The position numbers and the translations under genes are program-made. DNA of 63,536 nucleotides, filler included, from Rhabdomonas costata (taxonomy: Eukaryota), in NCBI GenBank assembly GCA_019059605.1. It is 30 parts of 30 records of this genome, joined end to end, with 100 filler letters (N's around TTAATTAATTAA, not from the genome) between each part and the next. Parts side by side here need not be neighbours in the genome. Positions count along the whole stretch, not along the records: positions 40,312 to 42,332 come from JAHMHO010006348.1; 29 more parts are not named here. The stretch is one strand, 5' to 3'. Numbering within the stretch: position 1 is the first letter of the stretch; each line of letters opens with the position of its first letter. Shown here piece by piece: positions 8,385-57,506 of the stretch. The notes beneath the pieces were generated by a model. That model made no database searches, was not told where the DNA came from, and worked only from the letters and a program-made list of their open reading frames with translations.

Positions 8385-10607
8385 NNNNNNNNNNNNNNNN
8401 NNNNNNNNNNNNNNNNNNNNNNNNNNNNTTAATTAATTAANNNNNNNNNNNNNNNNNNNNNNNNNNNNNNNNNNNNNNNNNNNNGTGTTGGGTGTGGTTG
8501 GGTTGGGGGTGGATGAGGAGGACATGCCGGGGTGCGCACCAATTTGACTTTCGAGGTGATGCCCCGACGGCTCCCCTTGGGCATGGCACTACAAAGGGTC
8601 CCCTCCACTGTGAATAGCAGCGTTTGTGTGCTTGAATGGTTTAAGCTTAAGCCGCTTAAGCCTTGCACCCTCTTAGAGGTATGGGCACTGTGCGTGAGCA
8701 GAGGGTCAATGCGATGCACAATCCCTCCCCGAAACCGATGTTTCCTTCGGGAACGTTTGGTTTTCTACTCGCACAGAAAAACTCTTGCAGATGGCACAGA
8801 AGGGGAAAGCGAAGGTGACAGAAGCGCTGGGGTATAGGGGAAGGGCACATCGGGGCAAACCAGTATGGAAGGGCGTGATCTCCAACTTAGCGCACTCGTG
8901 AAAGCAGGAGAGAGTTCAGCGAGACCGTGGTGTGGCTGCGGATGGTCGAGAGGCACCTGGGGAGAAGCCATTGATTCGAGGCAAGGGGATCAACTCAGAG
9001 GGTTCGCAGGGAAGGTGGCCAGCACCAAACAACCACCGAAAATGAACAATGTTCTGCGACCGGTCGAAAAAGGGTGGTTGAGAAGTGGCTCTCTGTTTTT
9101 TGTCCCCACGCAAGAAGGCAGTCATGTTTGAGTATTACATCCCCTGGTTTCCAGCACAAAATGATCAATAGGGTGGCAAAGGGGGCTTCGGATTCTTTTT
9201 TTTTTTTTGGACTTTTCGATGCTCTCACAGGACCCTCCCGTCTGCGAGGCCGCGGGGATGTTGTGCTGAACACGAGGCATGCCCGGCCCCGCCGAAACTC
9301 CAAGGTGTATGCATGTGGGGTTGTTTGTTTGGGTTTGTTTGTTCCGGGCAATGCGCAGGTGAGGTGGACAAGCAGTCTTCTAGGAGGAGCTGCACACTTG
9401 TGTTGGTATCAGTGACTTGCCTCCTGCTCGCCCCTCATCCGTGGTTCCGGATGGTCTGTCAAAATGCTTTAGCTCTAGCTTTGGTTTGTTTTGAACTAGC
9501 ACTCCGATGTCTCTGGATGCATTGCTATGCCCCTGTCCCATCGTGTACTGCGCCTTCTGTCTTTTTTACATGTGCCAAGAGGTAACTTTGTGACTTGCGT
9601 AAGAAGGGGCTCCGGCGGTTTTTCTGGCCACTAGGGGGTGCCATGGGGTGCCATGCCCTCAGCCCTGCATGCATTTGCCGCATCACTAGTGACCAGTAAG
9701 CGTCAGTGTGGACCATGCGTGGGGGAGGGGGTGCGACGGCAATGCTTGTGCGATGCTTTCGGACCCATACCAAATGCATGTCTGTGCATGAGCCGATTCG
9801 ACGCCTATGTGTGTGTGCTTCTTTTCTTGCAGCCGGAGACGTTTGCTAAGGCTGTGCCCGGCGACCGCTGGTGAGTATCGCTCATCTGGGCTAGCTCAAC
9901 AGAGCACCTCTGTATTTTTTTCATGGTGATCTGTCTGTGTGGTTGCTGTGGTCATGTTAGTGGTGATGGTAATGGTGGACTTTTGGTGAAGAAGAGTAAA
10001 TGTCGTGGAGTTCTGTGTCATGCCCCATATGTACTGCAGCTGTTCGTTTTCGTGAGGGCCCACCGTTTGCGCGGAACGGCCACCCCCCGCATGCTCAAAG
10101 CGTTTGCAACCCCTTCTACTTTTCATGTGCGTACCGTCGTGAGTATTTGTGAAGGCCTTTTTGGTTTTGCAGGCATGAAAACTGGGTAAGCTGGCTCCGC
10201 CACGTTACTACTCACCTTTTTGCATTTTAGGTGGAAACTACTACATTGGGGCAAGGCCATGTGGTCACCATCGCAAATTTGCTCATGAACGTTGTTGTCA
10301 CACACATGTGATGACCATCCAGGAAGATGTTTGCCAGCATGATGACAAATTACCTTAAATTACCTTCTAATGCTCCACGAGTTCGAGTGTCGTTGACGAT
10401 TGTGTGTCCGGTGGTCATGGCACCCGCGGGGTTCGTCGTAATTCTGTTCATGCTTGTTCAAGCAACCATGCAGGATTACCTCCTGGGAAGGGCGCGGGTG
10501 CCACACANNNNNNNNNNNNNNNNNNNNNNNNNNNNNNNNNNNNNNNNNNNNTTAATTAATTAANNNNNNNNNNNNNNNNNNNNNNNNNNNNNNNNNNNNN
10601 NNNNNNN

Positions 10608-16874: not shown

Positions 16875-19800
16875 NNNNNNNNNNNNNNNNNNNNNNNNNN
16901 NNNNNNNNNNNNNNNNNNTTAATTAATTAANNNNNNNNNNNNNNNNNNNNNNNNNNNNNNNNNNNNNNNNNNNNGGTTTTTGGGCCACACAAGGATTCCT
17001 GCGAATGTCGAGTTTTCTACGGGCGTTTGAAACCTTTCCTTTTGCGAGGAGAGGCTTCAGCATATTAAGTTGGCTCGCCAATTCGTGGGTTGTTGTGACA
17101 CCACGTTTTGCTGCTCTTTTGAGGTTTCTTCTTGTCACAGAAGACCAATGCTGGGCCCGCAACCCGTTTGTGAAGGCCGCCATCTCCGACCTCAAGGTAA
17201 TTCCTCGCAGGAACTTTCAGATTTGCTTAGGAGAAGAAAAGGATAGGAACGGAAATTTGGGCCGATATGGTCCAGAGTTAGGAAGCAAGGCCTCTTACCA
17301 TTGCACTTCATTTGCTGCTGGTTCCTTCCCATTTTTTCTTTTCCATTACCACCTTCCTCCATCGCCCTTCATAAAGCTGGTTTTCCCTTTCCGATTAAGT
17401 CCCCCCACCCAGCCTTCCTTGCACTTTAGCGAAACAACACTAAGCAATCGTCTTTCTGTTCTCTTACCGCCACCGGCGGCCCCATAAGTGTTGTCGTTCC
17501 ATGGCATACTTCAGGCACCAATGGTTTAATGACAACTTGTTCCAGCCCCCCCCCCCGCTCCTTTTTTACCTCCTCACACCCTATTGCCGGTAAAACGTTT
17601 GACTCCTCCCAAAACTCTTTCGTTTTATTTTCTGACTTTATAAGTCGTTGTTGCTGCTTAAATGTAAATTTCGAAGCTGAAGCATTCAAATCAAACCTTC
17701 CCCCCATGGGTTGTGGGTACCACCCATATTCGTGATGCGTGTTCCTCAGTTTGACTGCTGCTCTCCGCCGGAGCCTGAGAGCCCGTCACAGATCTGAGCA
17801 GGTGCTCCTCTCCTTTTTTCTGACGCCTTGGACCGCTTTTTCTGGTGGTGGTGAGGAGAATTCTTGTTTCATTTGGGGAAAATCGGCGGCAGTTTACTCT
17901 CCCAATTGCTTCTCCTCGCCCTCTGTCCCATCTTTTGCTGTGTGCCGCCCTCTGTCGCAGTTTTTGGTCGGCGTTTCGGTAGGTGCCCAATCAACCATTC
18001 CTTCATAGTTGCTTTCGACATGTTCTCTTTTTTACGTTTTGCTTGTTTCCCTCCTTCTACTCCCTCCAAGTTCCCTCCTACTTCTTTTTTTTTGGGGGGG
18101 GGGGGTAGCCCCTCCCCCGCTGAGTGGAAGCACCCCTCTCGTCAAGCAAACCGCTTTTTCTGTTTTCAATTTAGCTGATTTGCTGCATTGCCTCGTACAA
18201 GCTGTCACGCTTGCTCTAAGATTGTTTGCATTCAGTTGTCAAGAGACAAAACCTTTTTCAACCATGGTATCAACGTTGCGGTGTTTTTTTTTGGGGGGGG
18301 GGCATCACTCTCCTAACCGCATACCGCTTGAACAGCTTTTGGTTCGTGTTTGCATGTGAACGTGCTCAGGAATGAGGCCGGACCAGTTGGACGCCTTTGT
18401 GCCGTACCCTGCTGCCCCATCTTTTGGGCTTGTCGGGATTCTGCACTGCGCTGGGACTGGACGGATGGGACCGTTGGGACGCACCGTACTTTGTTTGGCT
18501 ATTGTGTAATTGCCTTCTTGCAAGCTCGTATATCAAATGACGCAATTGTACCACTGCTTTCTCTCAACGGTGGTTGAATTATATTTTAACAGGCCCTTCT
18601 GACCCGCACAGGAGAACTAGAAGCGGGTGTGCGGTCGGAATAATATTTTTAATTGTGAACGCAGTCCTCTCTCGAACTGTGCGAAGTTGTCCTTTAACCC
18701 TTTAGTCGCTCCTTTTTGTTTTTGCGCCTTTTCTTGCGAGGGTTAGTTGTCCACACCCACAACATCAATACCCCCCCTCAAAAAATGAGACAACTGGCTG
18801 GAGGACCCAACCCTTTTCAACTCACGTTCCAACAAAGTCTTCGCATCCTCAGTGCCGCTTAATCATTTTGCATTGGGAGCCCCTGACATATCCGACCACC
18901 AGGCTGGCGGCTTCGGCCCTGGGCTGGGAACTATGCTGGGAACTGTAAAACCATGTGGTCCGGTTTCTAGGCACATTTGTCTTTCCACCAACCACCNNNN
19001 NNNNNNNNNNNNNNNNNNNNNNNNNNNNNNNNNNNNNNNNTTAATTAATTAANNNNNNNNNNNNNNNNNNNNNNNNNNNNNNNNNNNNNNNNNNNNTGAG
19101 GGTCCGGCACAGCGCCAAAGCAAGTGCCAAATGAGAGAGGCTGCAAGTGAGAGTGAAAGGGGTGAACTCAAAGCTGAGCAGCTGACTGATCTCTTGCAAT
19201 ACTGGAGTGAAGGAAGTTTCGACCCCCCGACGGAGTCGTTGGGCCTCTTTCTGCAAGGCTCCTACTCCACCTGCCTAGAACACTCTTCGTCACGTTCTTT
19301 GCATCTGAGTTCAGAGGAGGTTGGTTCTGTGGGCTCGACGCGAATAGCGAATAGGGAAGAGGAGGGAAGTGGGGAGGGAAGCTGGTGCAGGTGCAGCAGG
19401 GTAAGAAAAACACGGAACATGAGAAAGCAAACTAAATTTAGTGTCGCTCAATTAGCCACTGTTTTTTTTTTCGCCTTGGGAGAATTTTTCTTGGAATAAA
19501 AACAAAAAACTGGGAAAACCGGAAAATGTTTCTTTCTAACCACCACTTCCCTTCTGGCATTATTCTTTCATCCGTCACATTTTCAACCCACCATTTCCCT
19601 ATTCGCACACTTTCCTTCTCTTATCTCATGCTTTCCATCTGCCTTCTCTTTTCTTTTCTCTGCGAAATCGATGTTCACGGTTTTTCTAGCCTACCTCAGG
19701 CATGGACACCCCTCTGTTAGGGTATTCCCCTGTGGATCATTGCTGTTTAAAAATGTTTGAATGACAAAAAACCTCACGAATTGCTAACACCAACACAACT

Positions 19801-28100: not shown

Positions 28101-29330
28101 TGGGGAGGTCCCAGAACCCAATGGATGTGGGTCAGAAGTGATCGGGAACACCGCTCCCCATCACCAGACCTGCGCACAGTCTCACCTTTCATTCTTGGTG
28201 CACCACACTTCGCATCTGTGCCCTGACTGCGCTTACATTTTTATATCCTCTCGAATGTTTAGCCTTCTGCTCAAGAGTCGGAAGAGTCGGAATGTCGTAC
28301 ATGAGACAATGTTTCCGCGGGTATTCAGCCAACTGAGATTTTGTAGAACTACTTAATTCGGTAATGGGGGTCTCCGAGACAGGGCCGCGAACAGTCGTCC
28401 GCTTCCCAACCCGTTCTTCATCTTCACCAGAACCAGCCCCCCCTCCCTTCCTCTCGAGGAAAAAGGGGCGAGAAAGGCAGAGCAAAGGGTGTTGAAAATG
28501 GATAGGGGATCGCTGAAAAGAGCATAAAGTTAGGACAGAGGGAAAGGGGTAAGACTCCCCACAAAAGAAAACTGCACCTCTGCGGAGGGGAGCCGTCCAC
28601 TCAGAGCTCCCGGGAGGAGGAAAATATTCGCGGTACTCCACCCGTGGCTCAGCTGAAAAACTCCTTGAGAAGGCGCACAAAGAGTGAAACATCCAGAACG
28701 CGGAGAGCCTCTTTCGGAAAAAACTAGGAAATCACTCCAAATCTGCAAGCTTCTGGTAGCCGAAGTACTGTGCTATTTAAGTCCTGGTTTTTGGGGTGAA
28801 CGGGTATTACCCATATCCGTATGCCATTCTATCCACAGGTGTCAGCACTGCAATGTCGACCACCGGAAATGCACGAAAACAGTGCACACAACAGCGAAGC
28901 AGTATGAATATTCACAACATGTACACAAAGGAGGGAAGTCACAGATCCCCATACCCGTAGGCTTTCAGCTGGTCACGGGACTGGGACAGCCTCCCTGAGG
29001 CCAGAGAAGACAACGTGGCTCCCGCAAACCCTGAATCCATTACGAAAGTATCAATGGCAACGCTTTATGAGCGCGGGTGAAAAAGGAACGCTTAAAGAAA
29101 AAAGAGCAAAAGCAGCCGAGCCTGTGCAGGGAAGGCAAGCAACCCAAACACCCAAACACGGCGGAGCATTTTGATTCCCTATCCCAGCCCCGGATGCCTC
29201 CAACACCGCACAGCCAACATTCCCTCGAGTCGGTACTTGTCTTCCTCCCTTCCTCCCCTAATTAGAAGCCAAATGAAAATGGCATGGCACGTCGCACGGA
29301 CTAAGGGGCCAAAAATCCCCTGTACTCCAC

Positions 29331-38860: not shown

Positions 38861-40758
38861 GTAGAGCGTCCAGCGTGATGGTACATCTCGGTGGAACCCG
38901 TATTATCCCATAAGACCATTATTCTTTCAGTGCAGCTTCTTCATCTCTGGGTCAGGGCGCTGGTGAGGGCTGCTGTTCCTTGGATCATAGTTCGGGAAGA
39001 CCGTCAGTGGTTCCTCGGGCTCGCCGAGCTGCCCGTACTGTGCTTCGGCCCGCAGCTACGTGCAAACGGTACAATCGCTGAACTCTCGCTTGCAGCAGCA
39101 CCTGGCCCAGCTGGGGGCCGCCCTTCATGCGCAGGCTAAACCTGCCTCGTGCGCACTTGCTGCTGCGGTTGAAGGTGTGTTTTCGGTTGGTGTGCCGTAA
39201 AAGCATCGTGGATGTGTGATAACGCATGTCGCTTCCCATTTTTGCTGCGCTAAGGCACGTCTCTGACTTTGTAGGATGGAAGTCCCTCGCTCTTGGGAAA
39301 GTGAAGGTGAATACTAAAAAGTTACTGGAGCTGAATTGGAACCTAACATTCGAGTATGATGACGGGAAAACGGGAAAACGGGACAACGGGACTAGCAATG
39401 CGAGCTCACATGCCTCTTTATTTTCTCCATTGCATCCGTCGGAGTTTTCCGTACCCTTTTATCCAGCTCAAATGTGAGCAAAAATTATTTAGATCATTCT
39501 GTCATTCACGATCTTTAAGTCTTTCACGATCTTTAGATCTTTAAGTCATTCACGATTCATTCTGATGCCAAACTGAGTTATCCTGTCCACGCGGACGGAG
39601 CATTTTATTTTGGAGGGATTTTCTTGATGGTCTGGTGCCAAACATTCGTCAATTGCTCTTTTTGTGTCCGCGTCCGCCCTCTTAGGTTGCAACACTCATT
39701 GTTGTGCGCCGGAGAGCACCCTGCCGCCGCCTTCTGGGCCCCCTCCAGAACTTACTCAGCCGAGCCCGGGTACCGGCGCTGTCACCGAAGTTTTTTCACC
39801 GGAGCTCAAAGCAAAGGCTCTGTCTCCGTTTCCTGCCACTCCAGGCAGGGTGCCGAACAACACCTTACCTCAGGCTGAGTGCAGAAAGGCTCCGCAAAAA
39901 GAACGCAAACTTTCGTCGCTTCACCTTCGCGTCAGATTCGAACTGCAGCACGATGCACCCGCTCACGGGGACTGTTACCTCGAACGTGCTCAGCTTCTCA
40001 GTCGCGGGCGCGACCGCAGGTCTAAAACAGAGTGAAAAGACATCGGCAGCATCTGCAAAGGACGCTTCACAAACTGTACCGAATTCTACTAATTCGGTGC
40101 GTGGTCAAAGTTACGTCCGCAGAACTAAGAATAAGGTTGACAGTAATGTGTGAAGGAGATCCCTATCTTCTTAGTCTCGAGGAAGGGATCAGATTGCATT
40201 AACCAAAACAANNNNNNNNNNNNNNNNNNNNNNNNNNNNNNNNNNNNNNNNNNNNTTAATTAATTAANNNNNNNNNNNNNNNNNNNNNNNNNNNNNNNNN
40301 NNNNNNNNNNNGGGTTTTGGTTTTGGGGTTTTGGTAATACCCTTTTCGACTGGCTCCAGCTTCTAAGGGAGCCAGGTGGACCTCTAGCAGGCAGTGGCAA
40401 TTCAATGTGGGTGTGGTGCATCATAAAGCACGGTGGCCTACCGAAGCAAGGTTTAATGCAAGATTATTTACAGGTAGGTGCTCCTCTGTGGGCAATATGC
40501 ATGCGATTTGACTGGAGCGCTATTGCGGCATATTTGTGGCAGCAATTTATGAAAGAAAAAAAATCGTCGGCCTACGAGGCAACGACTAAACTCTGTGGCA
40601 AGTCAGCCACACAGAAAAACCCCAAAAAGCATTTCCCTCGGCCCACCAACAGGAACGCACATCGTTTTAAAAGCACAGATAGGAACTCAGGAACCCATGC
40701 GAACTTTCCTGAGCACTCTCGGCTTCGCTGTTGTCACGAGTACTGAACCAGACAAAAT

Positions 40759-42264
40759 TTAATATTCGTCCGGATCTTCGGCGCCGCTGGGCTCCGAGGT
40801 AGCAAGATCCTTGCAAGCTGCTGTGTAGGAATGCAGCTGAGAGAGCGCACTTTCCAGATTTTCCGGATCATAGGTGTGAACAAAAGCCCGCTTGCGCAGA
40901 AGCTTGCAGGCAGGCAGGCAAAGCACGTCTTCCAAGTAATCCCCAATGCATACGTTGTTATAAACGGATAAGATTCTCCGAGAAGGGTTTCCGTGCAATA
41001 GCCCCAACGGCTTCGCCGCGCACATGCGATAACGAATGCCACACTTGAATCCTGTAGGACACCAGTCCACAAACTGAATGCTGCGGCGGGTTTTGAGGTA
41101 ACCCACGGCAGCCATGACGTCCTTTGGGACAACCTCCCCGCTGAAAGATAAGCACAAGCTCGTATACTTTCCAAGTCGTATCCCAAGGTCAAGGGTCTGG
41201 GCTGCGGGAGAAAAGCACACATTGGTCATCTCAGCCACCGACAGGGACGAGGAGGACTCTTCGAGTGTGGGTCGGGGAGCCATAGCGCTGCAAATGAACT
41301 TCAAAGCTGGGTAGGGAACTAGATTTGCCTCCATCTCCCCCCACGAACTGTTCAGGGCACCGTCCCAACGAATGCCCTGGGTCAGCTCACTGAACCAACA
41401 TCCCATGACCTCGACATTCCGCTGGCGGAGTTTGGAATTCCAGAAGCTGCCCGTGCCCCCCGACCAAGAGTACAGCCCTTTCTGCGAGTGTAGCAGCACA
41501 AATTGTGAGCAATCATTAAGGTGGCTCAGACCCAGCAAGGAGTTGTAAATCAGTTCAGGCTCCCCTCGACCGAACTCGCGTCCAAAGTAGGGCAGCACAA
41601 CAGCTGAGTACACAGAGGCCTTCGAGACCACTGTCTGGATACCCTCAATTATTTGCGTGTTGAGAAGGTCACGACAAAAGGAGGACGCAATCAGTGAAAT
41701 GGAGGGCTTGTAAGGCTCCGCTTCGCAAAGTTTTCTGAAACGCTCAATAAAGGAATCCAGCGTACCGGGGTGTACTGAAGCAGGCTCGCAAACGCACCGT
41801 CGCGCCAGCGTGAGCGGAGTAACGAGGAGCTCCTCAGGTTCACTGCACCGAAGGAGGAAGTGCGGAATAGCACGCCCACAGGAGTCTTCTGAAAAGAACG
41901 GGGACACGGAGGGGCGATTCGGAAGCAACACGCCATCTGACGTAATGCCGTGCTCGATCGCCAGCCGCTCAAGGATCCCCAACCCACAGTGCGCTCCCAA
42001 AGAACCCAGGCCAAGCACAACTGTGCTGCTGGAGCAGCTTGATCTGTTGTCCCCGGTCGATAAAAACCTATCCTGCAGTCTGCGCCACGCAGCCTCATAG
42101 CTCTCGCGACGATAGAAAGGGAGCAAGTGCTGCCTCCACCGTTGGCAAACCGCGGAGGCCGCCACTAGGCTGCTTTCCAGGTCCAAATACTCCCCGATCA
42201 ACAAGACCACGTCCATAACTTCGAACCAGGCAGTCACAACTGTGCAATCGGTACTGAAGTTCAC
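40759..42264 (-). CDS. F-box-like domain fused to a divergent alpha-tubulin (single exon; first ATG at 42216; frame open to the contig end, so possibly 5'-partial)
   Basis: Residues ~13-47, WFEVMDVVLLIGEYLDLESSLVAASAVCQRWRQ, fit the F-box pattern (I..YL....L.....VC+.W). Residues ~80-501 align colinearly with alpha-tubulin: EHGI..DG, FFSE..G, RKL, YNS.L, RWDGALN, NLVPYP, LSVAEMTN.CF.P, GKY...C...G.VVPKDV.AA, SIQFVDWCPTGFKCGI, KRAFVH.Y, and terminal DEY. Confidence 0.93.
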   Translation of the reverse strand: MNFSTDCTVVTAWFEVMDVVLLIGEYLDLESSLVAASAVCQRWRQHLLPFYRRESYEAAWRRLQDRFLSTGDNRSSCSSSTVVLGLGSLGAHCGLGILERLAIEHGITSDGVLLPNRPSVSPFFSEDSCGRAIPHFLLRCSEPEELLVTPLTLARRCVCEPASVHPGTLDSFIERFRKLCEAEPYKPSISLIASSFCRDLLNTQIIEGIQTVVSKASVYSAVVLPYFGREFGRGEPELIYNSLLGLSHLNDCSQFVLLHSQKGLYSWSGGTGSFWNSKLRQRNVEVMGCWFSELTQGIRWDGALNSSWGEMEANLVPYPALKFICSAMAPRPTLEESSSSLSVAEMTNVCFSPAAQTLDLGIRLGKYTSLCLSFSGEVVPKDVMAAVGYLKTRRSIQFVDWCPTGFKCGIRYRMCAAKPLGLLHGNPSRRILSVYNNVCIGDYLEDVLCLPACKLLRKRAFVHTYDPENLESALSQLHSYTAACKDLATSEPSGAEDPDEY

Positions 42265-43473
42265 CTTGAGATTTTCTTCTGGCGAACCCCTCTCAGACCA
42301 AACCGAAGGAGCAAGTGGAAAGCCAAGGCACANNNNNNNNNNNNNNNNNNNNNNNNNNNNNNNNNNNNNNNNNNNNTTAATTAATTAANNNNNNNNNNNN
42401 NNNNNNNNNNNNNNNNNNNNNNNNNNNNNNNNGTGAGTCAGAAAAGTGCAGACTACGAGACCCATGCATCAGCCGGGGAATGCGGGCAGCTGCAGCCGGA
42501 GCAAACGGCTCAGGCTCAGTGTCGTGAGTGGGGCCTTCAGATCACACTCGGTTTGGAAACAGACTGACTGACGTGCTGACGAGGTAGCGTATGTGTTAGA
42601 CCAGCCAGCAGGCGCCTGGCACGCACGCAGCTCACCAGAGCAGAAGACGGTACGTCCCAGTCCCATCTGATCCGCATCAGCTAGAGCGCGTTGCATGCAA
42701 CGCGATTCAAGGAGTTCAAAGTGGGACCGAAATGGCAAGATGCAACCTAAGGCTGGGAAGATTTCCCGAGTGCCACCATACCACCAATTAAGAGCCATAA
42801 ACAACCAGCCAAGCTCAGGTAGTGATGCCCGTGCCTGAGCCATGGTGGCGTCTTCTAATTGTGGGTCGTCACTTTAATCCGAAGTGGACGGAGAGCCCAG
42901 GTTCAGCGAGCGGGGCAGGGCTCGCCTTCTTTGGGGGTAGTCTCTGCACAGTTGCAGAGTGCACGCCTCCCACAGGGGTACTTTGGTATTCTGCAAAGGT
43001 TCGCCCGCGCAGTACAAGCCTTCTTCCACATCCGGGCCGCCAAAGTCGCTCATGAAAACCACCATATAGGAGGCTGTCCTGGGAGCAGCTCAAGTGGAGT
43101 CCCCGAAAAAAAAGGGATATTGGGCGCCTCAGCTGACTGGGCTGGGAGGGTCACGGCCACCCAGCGGGATCGTGCTCGTCGGATTCTGGGCCCAAAAACC
43201 AACCCGGTCGCCCACCTGAACACCAAGGACTGATGTCCGTGCCTGATACCCGACCCTCCGGCTCCGGCTTCGGTTCCACAGCGTCCAGCCAGTAAGTCAC
43301 TCAGTGATTACGACGAAGTCCTACCCCACTCCCACCCTCACTATCTCCGGCATCTTTCTGAGGAGTGTGGTTGCTTTCGAGTTTCCACACACGGGAGGGC
43401 GCGATTTGATGCACGTCCGGATGCCGAGGAAAATAACGCAAGACGGTCAATAATGAGTACAGTTGAAACTCAC

Positions 43474-48291: not shown

Positions 48292-49207
48292 GTACGTGCC
48301 CCCCCTCCCTCCGCCTCCTTCGACTGCGGGGTGTGCTTGGTAGTCCACGCGCTAAGGAACCCAACACACCAGAGCTGCGGTGCGAAAGCTGTGCATTCCA
48401 GTGTTAGAAGCTCAACGTATTCAAAATGCATCTCTTTTCCATCATCATGCATCAAAAATAACACGTCCTCCTTTCGCATCTTCCCCCAGAAACGTTCTTT
48501 GGCCGGCACTTCTTTCTCCTCTTTGTGTGCCGCCGCTGCAGTGCTCGAAGTGCCGCCGCTGATGTGCTGTTCTCAACCACTTGATTATGAAAAATTTTAA
48601 AGAGTTAGGGATCAATTTTACCTTCTACACAACAACAGTGGCACTGTTCCAGAGCTTGGTCCACGACACAGACACAGAGAAGCACGAACCAACACCNNNN
48701 NNNNNNNNNNNNNNNNNNNNNNNNNNNNNNNNNNNNNNNNTTAATTAATTAANNNNNNNNNNNNNNNNNNNNNNNNNNNNNNNNNNNNNNNNNNNNTTTT
48801 TGTAGGGCCCCCGCGCTCATCACCGTCACAGGGGCCCTACAAAAAACGAAACGTAGTGGAAACGAAACAAACAATGAGCGGAATCAAAGAAGAAACAATG
48901 AGCCAAGGCAAGAAAAAGGGAAAGGGGGGGGGGTGGCGCCATGTCAGACCATGCCAAAGTATGCAGAGCTCTTTGGTTACTAGACACCATTTGACGGCCC
49001 CAGCCCAGGCTGCCTTTTCTGTTCTGGAGATGAAGCCTCTTGCTCGCAGAACCCGCGTGAGGGCCCGCATTCAACAGGTCCCATTGGTAAAAATCCAAAC
49101 TATCTATCACACGAACAGCCGAAAAACCAAACCTTCAAAATTGTGAGCTAGAAAAACCCTGAGCAACGACGAAGAAAGGGTGGGTGACGGAGGGAGATGT
49201 GTCACAC

Positions 49208-50639
49208 TTCATGTGCCACCGCTGCTCTGGGATCTCGCGGGGGACGGTGCTGACGGCCTGCGGGTTGGTGATGATGCTGCGCTTGTATCCCATCGCCCCT
49301 CCGAAGAACACCAGAGGCACGGAGACCAGGAACCACAGCGCGATCTGTGTGCCCCCCCCCCTATGCACTGATGGGGAAGTTCCGCAGGAGTGGTGCAAGG
49401 ACTAACTGTATGGCGTTGTGTACGACTCTCTTCGATCCGCTGCACTGCTGACTCCTAAACAAAACGCTGTGGTAAAGTAGCAGTAGCAGGTATAGTAGGA
49501 GTAATTGGAGGAATCGTTTCCTCCGGTGTGGGCAGGAAAAAGTGAAAAAAAAAGTAAGAGCACGGGTGAAATGGACAGAAAGCATAACAGAAAACGGATG
49601 TGCACCTCCAACCTCGATAGAGGAGCAAACGTGATTTACCAACACTCCGAGCGGCTCATACACTGTTGTGGTGGGTAAGGGGCATTTTCCGTTTGTAGGG
49701 AGAAGAGAGAGAGGCCCCGCAGAGATACCAGCCCCACGAGGCCGAAGAAGGGCACTGCGCTCGCCGCGCCCTGCTGCCACAGCATGAGGTTGAGCAGGAA
49801 GAACACCCCAAACACCTGTTGTAGACGGCAGTGGGATGCAAGGGGGGCATCGATGGAGAAAATGAACCCACCTATATTTATAAATGCATTCTTCTGGATT
49901 CTGGTTTCTTTCCCTTTCTGCTTATCCAACAACTTTCTACGCGATCCGAGGTGCTGCTAACTTAAGCCATTTTAAAATTCCTCATTCCAGGTGCTGTGAT
50001 GATTCTGTGACGCCACTGTTTCTTTTTGCTACAGCTGACTGAACAATTTGGATAATAGATGTTTTCAGAACGCAACCCGCTGTTTTGCCCCGAAAGGGAG
50101 CACAGCTGACTGCAAATGCATTGTTGTCTCTAAGTACATAAGGTTGGCCGGGTGGGCATCTGAGCCCGTGGGGATCAAGTGCACCGAGGGGCCGTTATGA
50201 ATCATAGACCCTAAAACTGTACTCCACCTCCCGTAGAGGCAGCGCCCTTCAGGGGGAATAGTGGTGACTGGAAGGGGGGGCGAGCACAAAGCTCACTTTA
50301 GACCGTACGAAACGCACCAGAACAACCTCTGAGTTGGTGCCGCAACAACCTGGAGTCTCTCGTTCACACTTCAGAAGATCAGAGACACAAGGGGCAAGAA
50401 TTAAAAACCAAAAGAAGGGGCAATAATTAAAAACAAAAAGAAACCAAGAAAAAAGGCTTTGACAGACATCCAGACCTTTCCGGGGAAGTACAGGCTGGTC
50501 ATCAGGATGGTCCTCCAGCTCTGCTCGTGGAACATCTTCGCCAGCACGGCGGTCACGAAGCCCCCCAGGCTTCCCATCAAGCAGAACAGCACCAGCATGG
50601 TGGTCATCAGCCACCCCCGGCGAGCAGGGGAGAGGAACC
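49208..50639 (-). CDS. TM9SF/EMP70 nonaspanin, internal exons (50639-50476, 49815-49729, 49344-49208)
   Basis: GFLSPARRGWLMT...FPG, LNLMLW..G...AVPF, and LWFLVSVPLVFFG...GY....P......PREIP.Q.W. Junctions are phase-consistent. Confidence 0.95.
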
Positions 50640-51234
50640 CTGGTTTTGGTGTTGAATTTTCCCGCCAAATCCTCCCAAACAACAACGGAAAGCGCTCAAA
50701 ATTACCATTGGGCAACGGCGCATTAGCCGTCAGACCTGCGATGTACAAAGCATCACAACTTAATCCCCCTCCCCGAGCCTCATATATAACAAAACCAAAG
50801 AAGGAGGCTGCCGCATGNNNNNNNNNNNNNNNNNNNNNNNNNNNNNNNNNNNNNNNNNNNNTTAATTAATTAANNNNNNNNNNNNNNNNNNNNNNNNNNN
50901 NNNNNNNNNNNNNNNNNTTTGTGGGTGTTATATCTTGGAACCACCGGTGCCGCACTAGGTGAGCAAAAAGGTAATCAAATTTTGCTGCACGTCGCTATTG
51001 CGTAAAGGAGTATAAATTAGTTGGAGGAGTGTGCGGGGCAAAATAGCCGCCTTGGTAAGGGATAACGTAAAGAACCCGCAGCCGTTTCCGTGCCTTTGGG
51101 TTCAAGAACGAAACATGAAGCTCGAGGCGTTTCGGCTTTCGCTCCAAGAAAGAAGGTGTGCACTTTGCCGGCCTTGTCCCTCCGCTGACTCTGAGGTGTT
51201 CTTGTGTGAGTGTGAGAGTTGTCTTCACTTGCAG

Positions 51235-55995: not shown

Positions 55996-56973
55996 ATGTC
56001 CTCCCCCGAGCAGCACATGTCGGCCTCGTCCCAAGGAGAGGGCCTTGCGGAGTTCTCCAATCCTCTCTCTGGACCAGCGCCGGCAGGCCACCAGTTCAGG
56101 AGGCTGAGAAGCTCCCTGAGCAGTGGTCGCTTTGTTGAGGCCGCCCACCTGGGACCCGCTTCATGCTGCATGGGGTTCCGGGTTCCGATCTGGTTGCTGA
56201 TGGTGCTGCTGGCCGTGGTGTCGGCCGCCGCGGTGGGAGTGCTGACGTTCTGCCTGATGTACTTCCGCAGCGTCAGCGCAATCAACGAGGTCGGGGTGAG
56301 CTACCGCGGGGTGTACTGCACGGTGGTGCAGAACGAGGTGGTGGCGTTCTTCACTCGCATCATGGGGGCCACCCGGCAGACGCTGAACTTCGCCTTCCTG
56401 GCTGGGGTGGGTCCAGGTCCGTGCATTGTCTCTCAGGAGTCTTTTTCTAGGGCTGCCAGTGCTGCGATTTCTAACGTGTGTGGGTTTGCAGACTGTTTAT
56501 ACTGTGATGAGCGGCATTGTCTTGTCCTTTTGCATACTCTGTGTTTTCGTTTCTTTCAGCGGGTGCGTGTTGCCTTTTGCACAGGACGGGATAGGTTTGG
56601 GCGTTTTCTTTATTTGGAGGCCACAGACCTTTCAAACGAGAGACTTTGGATTGCCACGGCGCCACTGAACTGGCTGGGGCTGTTTGGCTCTGTGCATGCA
56701 GGGTCCCTGTACCCGATCGAGTTCCGGAAGTACCTTTTCTCGGCCTCCGGGGTTACCAGCGAGGCCAACAGCCTAGTGATAGGGCTGGCCAGCGGGGAGT
56801 TCTTTGGCCTGGACCGGGTACCCACGACGGGGGAGCTGCACTGGGGACTGAGCAACGCGCAGACGGGGTACCTGTTCAGCACATTCCCGGCTCCGGGGTG
56901 GGGGGAGGATGAGTGGTTCCGGGAGTTCGGCAACATCACGACGGTTCCTGGGCACAAAAACACCACTGTTCGG
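55996..56973 (+). CDS. Membrane receptor with N-terminal TM helix and a Cache-like extracellular domain, 5' part (exons 55996-56416, 56702-56973)
   Basis: TM helix IWLLMVLLAVVSAAAVGVLTFCLMY, then a long helix, then SLVIGLASGEFFGLDR, which resembles the dCache y.g...G.f.g motif. Phase-1 GT-AG intron. Confidence 0.65.
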
Positions 56974-57506
56974 GTGTGCGCGCTTGGGTTTTATTTAACT
57001 GGTAGACTTTCTGTGAGGCTCGGAATAATGATCCCTATGAGTGATATAGTGTGGTGCTTTTCATCGTAGATGCAGGTGGCTCATTGCATGATGTGGAGTC
57101 TGAATTCTGGGTCGTTGAGACCATGTTTACCGGAGAGCTCACGAATACTGCGGACCGACACAAAAACACTCAGGNNNNNNNNNNNNNNNNNNNNNNNNNN
57201 NNNNNNNNNNNNNNNNNNTTAATTAATTAANNNNNNNNNNNNNNNNNNNNNNNNNNNNNNNNNNNNNNNNNNNNGTGTGGGTGTGACTGAAGAAGGCAGC
57301 GCTCCAAAATGCCGGTGGGCCATTACATCTGCATAAGGCATGAGTTTTGGGTTACGAACGTGAAATCTGAGTCTTACATTACGAGCCTGGTACTTCTCCG
57401 AAAACAGAGAGCTTTGAGTTAATTACTTTCTTTCACTGCTTTGTCTTTCCTTCGATTTTTTTGACAGTTTTCTTTTTGCTCATTTTCCAGCTTAACGATT
57501 TTCGGC

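Follow-up and report, generated by a model that had tools for sequence, protein, structure and literature searches.

A degenerate alpha-tubulin with an F-box-like N-terminal motif in the euglenid Rhabdomonas costata: a candidate SCF substrate receptor

A 2-kb contig from the genome of the euglenid Rhabdomonas costata carries what is probably a real orphan gene, in which a degenerate F-box-like motif is followed by a linker and by a highly divergent descendant of alpha-tubulin. The explanation that best accounts for the data as a whole, and which we put forward tentatively at somewhat short of even chances, is that this is a real, intron-less nuclear euglenid gene whose product would combine a pseudo-alpha-tubulin body with an F-box-like head and serve as an SCF substrate receptor.

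The window (the whole stretch of DNA that was analysed, 63,536 nucleotides in length) comprises 30 contigs of about 2020 bp each, with spacers of N/TTAATTAATTAA between them. The pseudo-tubulin gene is the sole gene on its contig (40312-42332). On the minus strand, a stop-free frame of 523 sense codons (40759-42332) is open up to the contig edge; the ORF caller's version of this frame (40759..42264) has 501 codons and starts from a GTG. The stop-free 501-codon frame described in the initial annotation was therefore confirmed, with one correction: the GTG start at 42264 is artefactual, a product of bacterial ORF rules, and the first ATG lies at 42216, giving a protein of 485 residues. Since no stop interrupts the frame before the contig edge at 42332 and the first ATG is at 42216, the true N-terminus is not fixed by the sequence. 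Residue numbers used here follow the 501-residue frame, in which the first Met is residue 17 (M17). The features of the locus are as follows.

40312..42332, unstranded: gene-bearing contig, with N spacers on both sides, a 24-base G/T-only run at its start and ...CACA at its end, like the window's other contigs.
42217..42332, minus strand: in-frame leader 5' of the first ATG, stop-free as far as the contig edge and probably part of the 5' UTR, its third-position GC of 0.47 equalling that of non-coding flanks.
40759..42216, minus strand: ORF of 485 residues from the first ATG to a TAA stop, with no evident intron (third-position GC; neutral-drift simulation).
42124..42213, minus strand: F-box-like motif, residues 18-47 (Pfam match to profile positions 7-35 of 47).
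42034..42123, minus strand: linker of about 30 residues (48-77), a predicted helix (53-70) and then a Ser-rich, low-confidence stretch (pLDDT < 50 at residues 67-77).
41977..41988, unstranded: 12-base A/C-only run (G/T-only on the coding strand) at codons 93-96, a possible amplification-primer footprint and the only such run inside the ORF.
41431..42033, minus strand: degenerate nucleotide-binding domain of the tubulin fold, residues 78-278, with GTP loops lost and 17 residues deleted in the alignment.
40954..41430, minus strand: conserved intermediate domain, residues 279-437 (73/160 identical, reference residues 221-380).
40762..40953, minus strand: C-terminal helices H11/H12, poorly conserved in the alignment, and a short acidic tail ending in ...DEY.
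40312..40418, unstranded: 3' flank with two G/T-only primer-like runs (40312-40335 and 40406-40418, from the run scan), which lies outside the ORF and may be an amplicon end that was appended.

Stop-free frames elsewhere in the window, on its 29 remaining contigs, extend to 370 codons at most, and most have fewer than 250. No paralogs or repeats of the pseudo-tubulin gene were found elsewhere in the window, a window scan found no tandem repeats bearing on it, and Rfam and tRNA scans of the whole window returned 0 matches each. An alternative genetic code was considered and rejected, as stop reassignments opened no long frames across contigs that pointed to one code.

The initial annotation had described the larger part of the frame as a colinear, full-length but divergent alpha-tubulin, and this is borne out. 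Colinearity with alpha-tubulin extends over the whole length, from about residue 78 to the C-terminus; sequence identity with six canonical alpha-tubulins is 31-34%, and the Tubulin_C model (PF03953) matches residues 319-445 with an E-value of 4.6e-20 (72.5 bits against a curated cut-off of 26.6). The Tubulin GTPase-domain model (PF00091) reached 15.1 bits, below its cut-off of 33, and aligned with residues 82-138 only. An AlphaFold2 model of the full-length protein (pLDDT 76.5, pTM 0.75) was compared with the PDB using Foldseek, which gave at least 500 matches at E <= 0.001; all among the matches listed were tubulin entries, the best being tubulin chain 9edr_A (E 1.7e-29, TM 0.84 on target, 27% identity). 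The predicted structure of the body is a tubulin fold. In a search of protein databases, all of the at least 120 matches listed carried tubulin Pfam domains, and those with names were alpha-tubulins.

Conservation is distributed very unevenly along this body, with 42/220 identical positions over reference residues 1-220, 73/160 over residues 221-380 and 18/71 in the last third. Amongst the nucleotide loops, T1 keeps 2/5 residues of the alpha-tubulin consensus, T2 1/4, T3 1/6 and T6 0/6; the T4 signature GGGTGSG keeps 0/7 and has a 2-residue gap; and the 17-residue deletion sits after reference residue 71. The M-loop (3/13), H11 (1/13) and H12 (5/16) are likewise poorly kept. The retained elements are T7 (5/8), H9 (7/9), H10 (9/13), the H10-S9 loop (11/13) and S9 (5/6), together with E310, a Glu that aligns with the invariant E254 column of alpha-tubulin, and a terminal Tyr (Y501) that is invariant in the alignment. 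The decayed nucleotide-binding domain is still built as a fold in the AlphaFold2 model. Judged from the alignment, the pseudo-tubulin appears to have lost its GTP pocket, and its body is predicted to have given up both GTPase activity and a place in the lattice. The alpha-specific traits (named best matches that are alpha, Glu at the E254 position and a C-terminal Tyr) clearly point to a body derived from alpha-tubulin itself, and a Misato-type origin is not indicated.

Counted from the first Met, an N-terminal extension of about 61 residues lies ahead of the tubulin part. In its Pfam scan, F-box-like (PF12937) matched with an E-value of 8.1e-4 and 19.5 bits, below the curated cut-off of 24.3, while F-box (PF00646) matched the same 30 residues with an E-value of 0.088 and 13.2 bits, below the curated cut-off of 20.5. 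An F-box normally opens with a Leu-Pro pair. Here the Leu-Pro positions of the profile hold E15-V16 (Glu-Val), so the hallmark pair is absent, and because M17 falls at profile position 6, a protein begun at this Met would be without the start of the motif. The motif shows F-box hydrophobic spacing and a V-C-x-R-W core; in a six-frame translation of the window, this motif is the one place where a loose F-box core pattern occurs, and no F-box match was found in 12 other window ORFs (10 scanned at E 0.1 and 2 at E 0.01). The top language-model neighbour of residues 1-80 in the Atlas is an F-box cluster, a lead only, with a score of 0.89. As to the F-box-like motif that the initial annotation had placed at about 42228-42124, a Pfam match was thus found at 42124-42213, but it lies below the cut-offs and without Leu-Pro; similarly, when the Pfam models proposed as a check (F-box PF00646/PF12937, Tubulin/Tubulin_C) were run, Tubulin_C came out above its cut-off while the F-box models and the GTPase domain fell below theirs. 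The sequence is only suggestive of an F-box.

Structural comparisons bear little on this identification. In the full-length model the extension forms helices at residues 8-26, 29-50 and 53-70 with low confidence (pLDDT 42-69), and folded alone it gave two long helices with a low-confidence pTM of 0.37. A Foldseek search with the extension model returned 0 matches, which says nothing on an F-box either way. A wide VIA-align search with the extension gave 29 chains at Z >= 5, none at Z >= 8 and a best Z of 6.4, all of them generic helical hairpins and uninformative on an F-box. A phmmer search of residues 1-95 against the PDB found no F-box protein and one irrelevant match (E 0.33). F-box proteins usually consist of an N-terminal motif, a linker and a protein-binding domain. 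The order found here is the motif at residues 18-47, the linker at 48-77, where a linker of about 30 residues had been claimed, and a separate tubulin fold at 78-501.

These data leave room for a reading, possible but rather on the unlikely side, in which the gene is a real pseudo-alpha-tubulin gene and the extension is not a working F-box. It would then be a lineage-specific helical appendage (involved, for example, in targeting, dimerisation or auto-inhibition), its F-box likeness would be chance or a dead relic, and the protein would be an SCF-free tubulin decoy, capping factor or pellicle component. The sub-threshold scores of both F-box models and the Glu-Val in place of the hallmark Leu-Pro speak for this reading, as do the two long helices, rather than a compact three-helix module, of the extension folded alone and the lack of an F-box protein in the fold searches and in the PDB sequence search; the evidence that the gene is real (drift simulation, third-position GC, fold) is shared by both explanations. 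Against it, a single query searched against all of Pfam is unlikely to reach an E-value of 8.1e-4 by chance, two models related by clan point to the same stretch, an F-box cluster is the closest language-model neighbour, and the order of motif, linker and protein-binding domain is the usual one for an F-box protein.

We also looked for relatives. For residues 1-95, 0/89 scored candidates reached E <= 10; among the 150 matches listed from an exhaustive search, none had its best stretch in the extension, before query residue 66; and a relative sharing the extension was not found in two very large protein searches. As nothing nearer than an ordinary alpha-tubulin was found in sets that include euglenid transcriptome proteins, these searches gave no hint that the protein is expressed or conserved. 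When 52 long tubulin matches were scanned with Pfam, no F-box family was seen among the 25 families listed, with six weaker families besides. RING-finger domains were seen in one of these 52 proteins. A strict Leu-Pro-type F-box start pattern matched 0/271 retrieved proteins, and the literature searched yielded no description of an F-box joined to a tubulin fold. The initial annotation's check for the same architecture in other proteins was therefore negative in protein searches including euglenid transcriptome proteins, and its claim that no F-box family with a tubulin fold has been described held, none having been found in the literature searched or in protein databases.

The frame itself bears the marks of selection. 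When the ORF was subjected to neutral substitution down to 32% identity, 0/300 runs remained stop-free (mean 16.4 stops, minimum 8). Because neutral drift to equal divergence never stayed stop-free, selection has kept the ORF open, as the initial annotation had argued from divergence without stops. Third-position GC is 0.63 in the ORF against 0.47-0.49 in the leader and 3' flank, and within the ORF it is highest in the N-terminal extension (0.75, 47/63 codons; p 2e-4 against 0.52). Since it is raised in the extension and not in the leader, the extension appears to be coding, with the ATG at 42216 as its likely start. Sure exons in the window have a third-position GC of 0.88-0.93, far above the ORF's 0.63. 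This is an intron-rich genome: three TM9SF exons of 33-56 codons each lie inside 1.5 kb of the window.

A second alternative, which we judge quite improbable, is that the ORF is not the translated form: it could be a recent, unexpressed pseudogene relic, or the extension could be an intron or leader, with the true first exon beyond the contig edge. The frame's openness to the contig edge makes an upstream exon possible, and the genome is intron-rich, as the TM9SF exons indicate; the canonical alpha-tubulin gene tubA of a close relative has two introns (PMC8219788). The lack of a matching protein in databases including euglenid transcriptome proteins, and a third-position GC well under that of sure exons, point the same way. 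The absence of any stop-free run in the 300 neutral simulations speaks against it, however, as do the roughly 100 stop-free codons that precede the tubulin core, improbable in non-coding sequence, the extension's third-position GC (the ORF's highest) together with its Pfam match, and a conservation that is not uniform but follows structural elements.

The assembly carries footprints of amplification. G/T-only runs of at least 6 bases occur at 24/30 contig starts and A/C-only runs at 16/30 ends, with 0 in the opposite orientation; these G/T-only starts and A/C-only ends are amplification-primer remnants. Interior runs of at least 12 bases number 91, against 40.4 +/- 5.6 in shuffles (maximum 53 in 100 shuffles), an excess that makes it probable that chimeric joins are present in the assembly, and the gene-bearing contig holds three primer-like runs. 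The G4T4-like run at 40312-40335 was considered as the telomere of a ciliate nanochromosome, and this was rejected on its reversed orientation, a GC of about 52% and the irregular G/T-only starts of 24/30 contigs. A published draft euglenid genome is reported to be fragmented through uneven whole-genome amplification (PMC8219788).

The primer remnants at contig ends, the excess of interior runs, the three runs inside the gene-bearing contig and this reported fragmentation would all suit a chimera, formed when whole-genome amplification or the assembly fused a truncated tubulin-like gene, in frame, with F-box-containing sequence of a different locus. The sole run in the ORF (41977-41988) does not bear this out: the 15 residues just upstream of it fit the tubulin N-terminus in fixed register, with only 41/53,478 background 15-mers fitting as well (p ~8e-4), so that tubulin homology is in register on both sides and the run is not a join of unrelated loci. 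The linker (42027-42124) is free of G/T-only and A/C-only runs that reach 10 bases, and no primer-like footprint was found in it. A random join would preserve strand and frame about 1 time in 6; there is no Met between M17 and the tubulin core, so the tubulin part would be without a start codon if the extension were removed; and third-position GC is raised over both parts and not upstream of the ATG. We consider a chimera improbable, though a real risk in an amplified, fragmented assembly.

Under the preferred explanation, that of a candidate SCF substrate receptor, the body (about residues 78-501) would be a descendant of alpha-tubulin that keeps the tubulin fold and has shed its GTPase and lattice roles. 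The GTP pocket, the M-loop of the lateral contacts and the H11/H12 outer ridge would have decayed, while the face that alpha-tubulin turns toward the neighbouring dimer's beta-tubulin (T7, H8 with the E254 equivalent, H10 and the H10-S9 loop) would have been kept. Such a body may act as a non-polymerising alpha-tubulin mimic. Its docking site would be the plus-end face that beta-tubulin exposes in free dimers or at the ends of microtubules, or else a factor that recognises alpha-tubulin. The head, about 61 residues from the first Met, predicted to be helical and with the degenerate F-box-like motif at its opening, would recruit Skp1/Cullin, and the protein would thereby act as an SCF substrate receptor that brings about the ubiquitylation of tubulin or tubulin-binding proteins, the tubulin fold being a putative substrate-recognition module. 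The translation start, expression, Skp1 binding, docking on beta-tubulin and ubiquitylation are steps that we infer. The most specific form of this proposal, that of a first F-box protein with a GTP-dead alpha-tubulin as its recognition module, which docks on the E-site face of beta-tubulin and brings SCF to free dimers or plus ends, we regard as doubtful.

Should the fusion prove genuine and its head bind Skp1, a cytoskeletal subunit would have been recycled for recognition within its own polymer system, a design undescribed for F-box proteins. Euglenid cell shape depends on a microtubule pellicle. The protein could then be a natural tool to cap or degrade tubulin, and a dedicated ubiquitin switch for tubulin homeostasis in euglenids. 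Even without an F-box function it would be a rare tubulin pseudo-enzyme, an alpha-tubulin paralog under selection despite the apparent loss of its GTP pocket, lateral contacts and motor-binding ridge, with one longitudinal face kept. This value is tempered by the nature of the evidence, which is a single 2-kb contig of amplified DNA with no ortholog or transcript found in protein searches including euglenid transcriptome proteins.

Several known systems offer points of comparison. With canonical alpha-tubulin (PF00091 plus PF03953) the pseudo-tubulin shares its colinearity, its predicted fold, the elements T7, H9, H10, H10-S9 and S9, the Glu at E254 and an acidic tail with Tyr. It differs in its identity of just 31-34%, in the degeneracy of the GTP loops, M-loop and H11, in the 17-residue deletion, in having an N-terminal extension of about 61 residues and in a GTPase model that falls below cut-off. 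Its gene is intron-less, whereas the canonical tubA of a relative has two introns (PMC8219788). Like F-box proteins (PF00646/PF12937), the pseudo-tubulin has a motif of about 30 residues at its N-terminus, from which a linker leads to a protein-binding domain. This layout is exemplified by Skp2 and Fbxw7. Unlike them, its motif is below thresholds and without Leu-Pro, and a tubulin fold stands where F-box proteins have C-terminal WD40, LRR or Kelch domains. Misato/DML1 are degenerate tubulin-superfamily proteins that have diverged from a polymer-forming, GTP-hydrolysing role, and the pseudo-tubulin would resemble them in this divergence. The Tubulin_3 model matched 15/53 proteins scanned and was absent from the pseudo-tubulin's own matches at E 0.01. 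Finally, beta-tubulin plus-end caps, such as those in DARPin D1 complexes, would be alike in occupying the face that the next alpha-tubulin would bind; these caps are unrelated folds, whereas a pseudo-tubulin cap would be a relic of alpha-tubulin itself.

Our favoured, though tentative, reading of the open frame on the minus strand of the contig at 40312-42332 is that it is a real orphan gene encoding a GTP-dead alpha-tubulin mimic with an N-terminal degenerate F-box. The degenerate F-box head (the extension ahead of the tubulin core) would recruit SCF, while the body (aa ~78-501, numbered from a GTG at 42264) would act as the mimic. The observation behind the initial annotation, an F-box-like motif joined to a divergent alpha-tubulin, was upheld once its start codon had been corrected and the window recognised as 30 contigs.

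The body is read as an alpha-tubulin-derived pseudo-tubulin. As had been claimed, it is colinear, full-length and divergent, aligning with six canonical alpha-tubulins from aa ~78 to its last residue at 31-34% identity. Pfam identified Tubulin_C at aa 319-445 (E 4.6e-20), and the tubulin GTPase-domain model scored 15.1 bits, under its cut-off of 33. An AlphaFold2 model based on a 57-sequence alignment has a tubulin fold (pLDDT 76.5, pTM 0.75; strand S1 at aa 81-86), with tubulin chains on top when searched against the PDB using Foldseek (9edr_A, E 1.7e-29, TM 0.84 on target, 27% identity). Measured against a consensus of 47 alpha-tubulins, identity is uneven (42/220 over reference residues 1-220, 73/160 over 221-380 and 18/71 over 381-451), and 17 residues following reference position 71 are deleted. 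The boundaries of the elements listed here (T loops, helices, strands) follow the tubulin structure literature.

Identity of tubulin elements to the alpha-tubulin consensus
T1: 2/5
T2: 1/4
T3: 1/6
T4 signature: 0/7
T6: 0/6
T7: 5/8
M-loop: 3/13
H9: 7/9
H10: 9/13
H10-S9 loop: 11/13
S9: 5/6
H11: 1/13
H12: 5/16

Both the Glu at the alpha-tubulin E254 position and the C-terminal Tyr are retained. The body is probably unable to bind GTP, form lateral lattice contacts or show the usual motor/MAP ridge, and we read it as keeping the longitudinal face through which alpha-tubulin contacts beta-tubulin in the adjacent dimer.

The F-box-like motif noted previously stands as a Pfam match, but one that lies under the curated cut-offs and lacks the opening Leu-Pro, which is replaced by Glu-Val: F-box-like aligns with aa 18-47 (at positions 7-35 of its 47-position profile; E 8.1e-4; 19.5 bits, cut-off 24.3) and F-box aa 22-46 (E 0.088; 13.2 bits, cut-off 20.5). 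Hydrophobic residues in the head are spaced as is usual for an F-box, and there is a V-C-x-R-W core. Across all six translated frames of the window, a loose F-box core pattern was matched a single time, here, and none of 12 other window ORFs matched an F-box (threshold E 0.1 for 10 of them, E 0.01 for 2). In a language-model neighbour search with aa 1-80 an F-box cluster ranked first (0.89), a similarity that serves as a lead only. A real orphan pseudo-tubulin gene whose head is not a working F-box is a somewhat less likely alternative. Structure prediction and fold searches of the head pointed neither way: three helices at low confidence in the full-length model (pLDDT 42-69), two long helices when the head was folded alone (pTM 0.37), no Foldseek match, and only generic helical hairpins by VIA-align (best Z 6.4). 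No F-box protein was matched by phmmer against the PDB.

Against 5.8 billion proteins, a word-based search scored 8000 candidates, of which 1850 matched at E <= 0.001; among the matches listed, 120/120 have tubulin domains (28-49% identity, at most 87% query coverage). Exhaustive phmmer against 1.84 billion representatives gave 2031 at the same threshold; among the 150 matches listed, the best stretch started at or beyond query residue 193 in 149, spanned 66-452 in one, and lay in the head in none. With aa 1-95 as query, 89 candidates were scored and none reached E <= 10. A Pfam scan of 52 long tubulin matches yielded no F-box family among the 25 families listed (six weaker ones lay beyond). 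One long match, from among P0122-P0271 of the public protein set, has RING-finger domains (zf-RING_2, E 3.6e-12) as well as tubulin ones, which may reflect a further ubiquitin-ligase-tubulin fusion or else a faulty gene model. The literature listings searched held no description of an F-box-tubulin architecture or a euglenid tubulin pseudogene. The protein thus appears to be an orphan in the searched sets, and since these include Rhabdomonas costata transcriptome proteins, this counts against strong expression or conservation.

That the ORF does not represent the translated product, being either a relic or dependent on an upstream exon, is quite improbable.

40759-42332, minus strand: open frame of 523 sense codons between the contig edge (42332) and a TAA stop at 40759-40761

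The ORF was confirmed, but its GTG start at 42264 follows bacterial rules; an ATG first occurs at 42216, giving 485 aa and corresponding to profile position 6 of the F-box-like model. As no further Met lies between it and the tubulin core, translation of the complete tubulin part would have to include the extension, unless a start is provided by an exon further upstream, outside the contig. Third-position GC is 0.47 in the leader, 0.63 across the ORF and 0.49 in the 3' flank, reaching 0.75 over the first 63 codons from the ATG (47/63, p 2e-4 against 0.52), which supports coding from 42216. The bias is real but weak, given that the sure exons of a TM9SF/EMP70 gene reach 0.88-0.93. When the ORF was randomly substituted in simulation to 32% identity, stops averaged 16.4 (minimum 8) and no frame stayed open (0/300), bearing out the earlier argument for selection over pseudogene decay; a drifting pseudogene is ruled out for most of the ORF's history.

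TM9SF/EMP70 gene, three colinear exons (contig 48797-50817)
50473-50640, minus strand: exon
49720-49818, minus strand: exon
49204-49344, minus strand: exon

These exons are 91%, 91% and 98% identical to EukProt protein RCo017857 and separated by introns of ~650 and ~375 bp; the genome is one of short exons and frequent introns. In PMC8219788 the RCo prefix marks proteins derived from the transcriptome of Rhabdomonas costata, a euglenid, so the window belongs to that species or to a close relative. The paper also reports a canonical alpha-tubulin gene with 2 introns and a euglenid draft genome broken up by uneven whole-genome amplification.

Rather than a single locus, the 63.5-kb window comprises 30 contigs (2017-2023 bp each, sorted by size at ~2.02 kb) separated by N runs around the word TTAATTAATTAA (e.g. 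40212-40311 and 42333-42432); features across a spacer are artificial. Only three ATG-started ORFs of at least 250 aa are present under the standard code, and alternative genetic codes left this scarcity of long ORFs unchanged. A 357-aa ATG ORF (55996-57069, plus strand) is predicted to span the membrane once, close to the N-terminus, and has no Pfam match above threshold (DUF456 at E 0.005) and bacterial periplasmic sensor domains of dCache/PDC/CHASE type as nearest language-model neighbours (0.95); it may encode a membrane protein with a sensor domain or have come from bacteria.

G/T-only runs of at least 6 bases start 24/30 contigs and A/C-only runs end 16/30, with the opposite arrangement in 0/30. 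These look like remnants of untrimmed whole-genome-amplification primers, presumably from a kit of the G/T-degenerate type. A ciliate telomere was rejected for the G4T4-like start of the ORF's contig, as it runs the wrong way round for a telomere and an irregular version is seen in every contig. Interior runs of at least 12 bases number 91, against 40.4 +/- 5.6 in dinucleotide shuffles (max 53, n=100), and this ~2x excess suggests primer footprints, possibly chimeric joins, within the assembly.

29140-29159: interior primer-like run
9314-9343: interior primer-like run
18085-18106: interior primer-like run
41977-41988: sole primer-like run within the ORF (codons 93-96)

The 15 residues just upstream of this last run fit the alpha-tubulin N-terminus in fixed register, with scores as high in only 41/53,478 background 15-mers from other contigs, and AlphaFold builds strand S1 from them, so this run does not mark a junction of unrelated loci. 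The stretch at 42027-42124, between motif and tubulin start, is free of G/T-only and A/C-only runs of at least 10 bases; a chimera without a footprint at the join is possible, and an amplification or assembly chimera is, overall, quite improbable.

Because the head scores under the curated F-box thresholds and the GTPase features of tubulin were sought without being found, we class the protein as neither an F-box protein nor a bona fide tubulin. We instead file it as a variant form with a resemblance to both.
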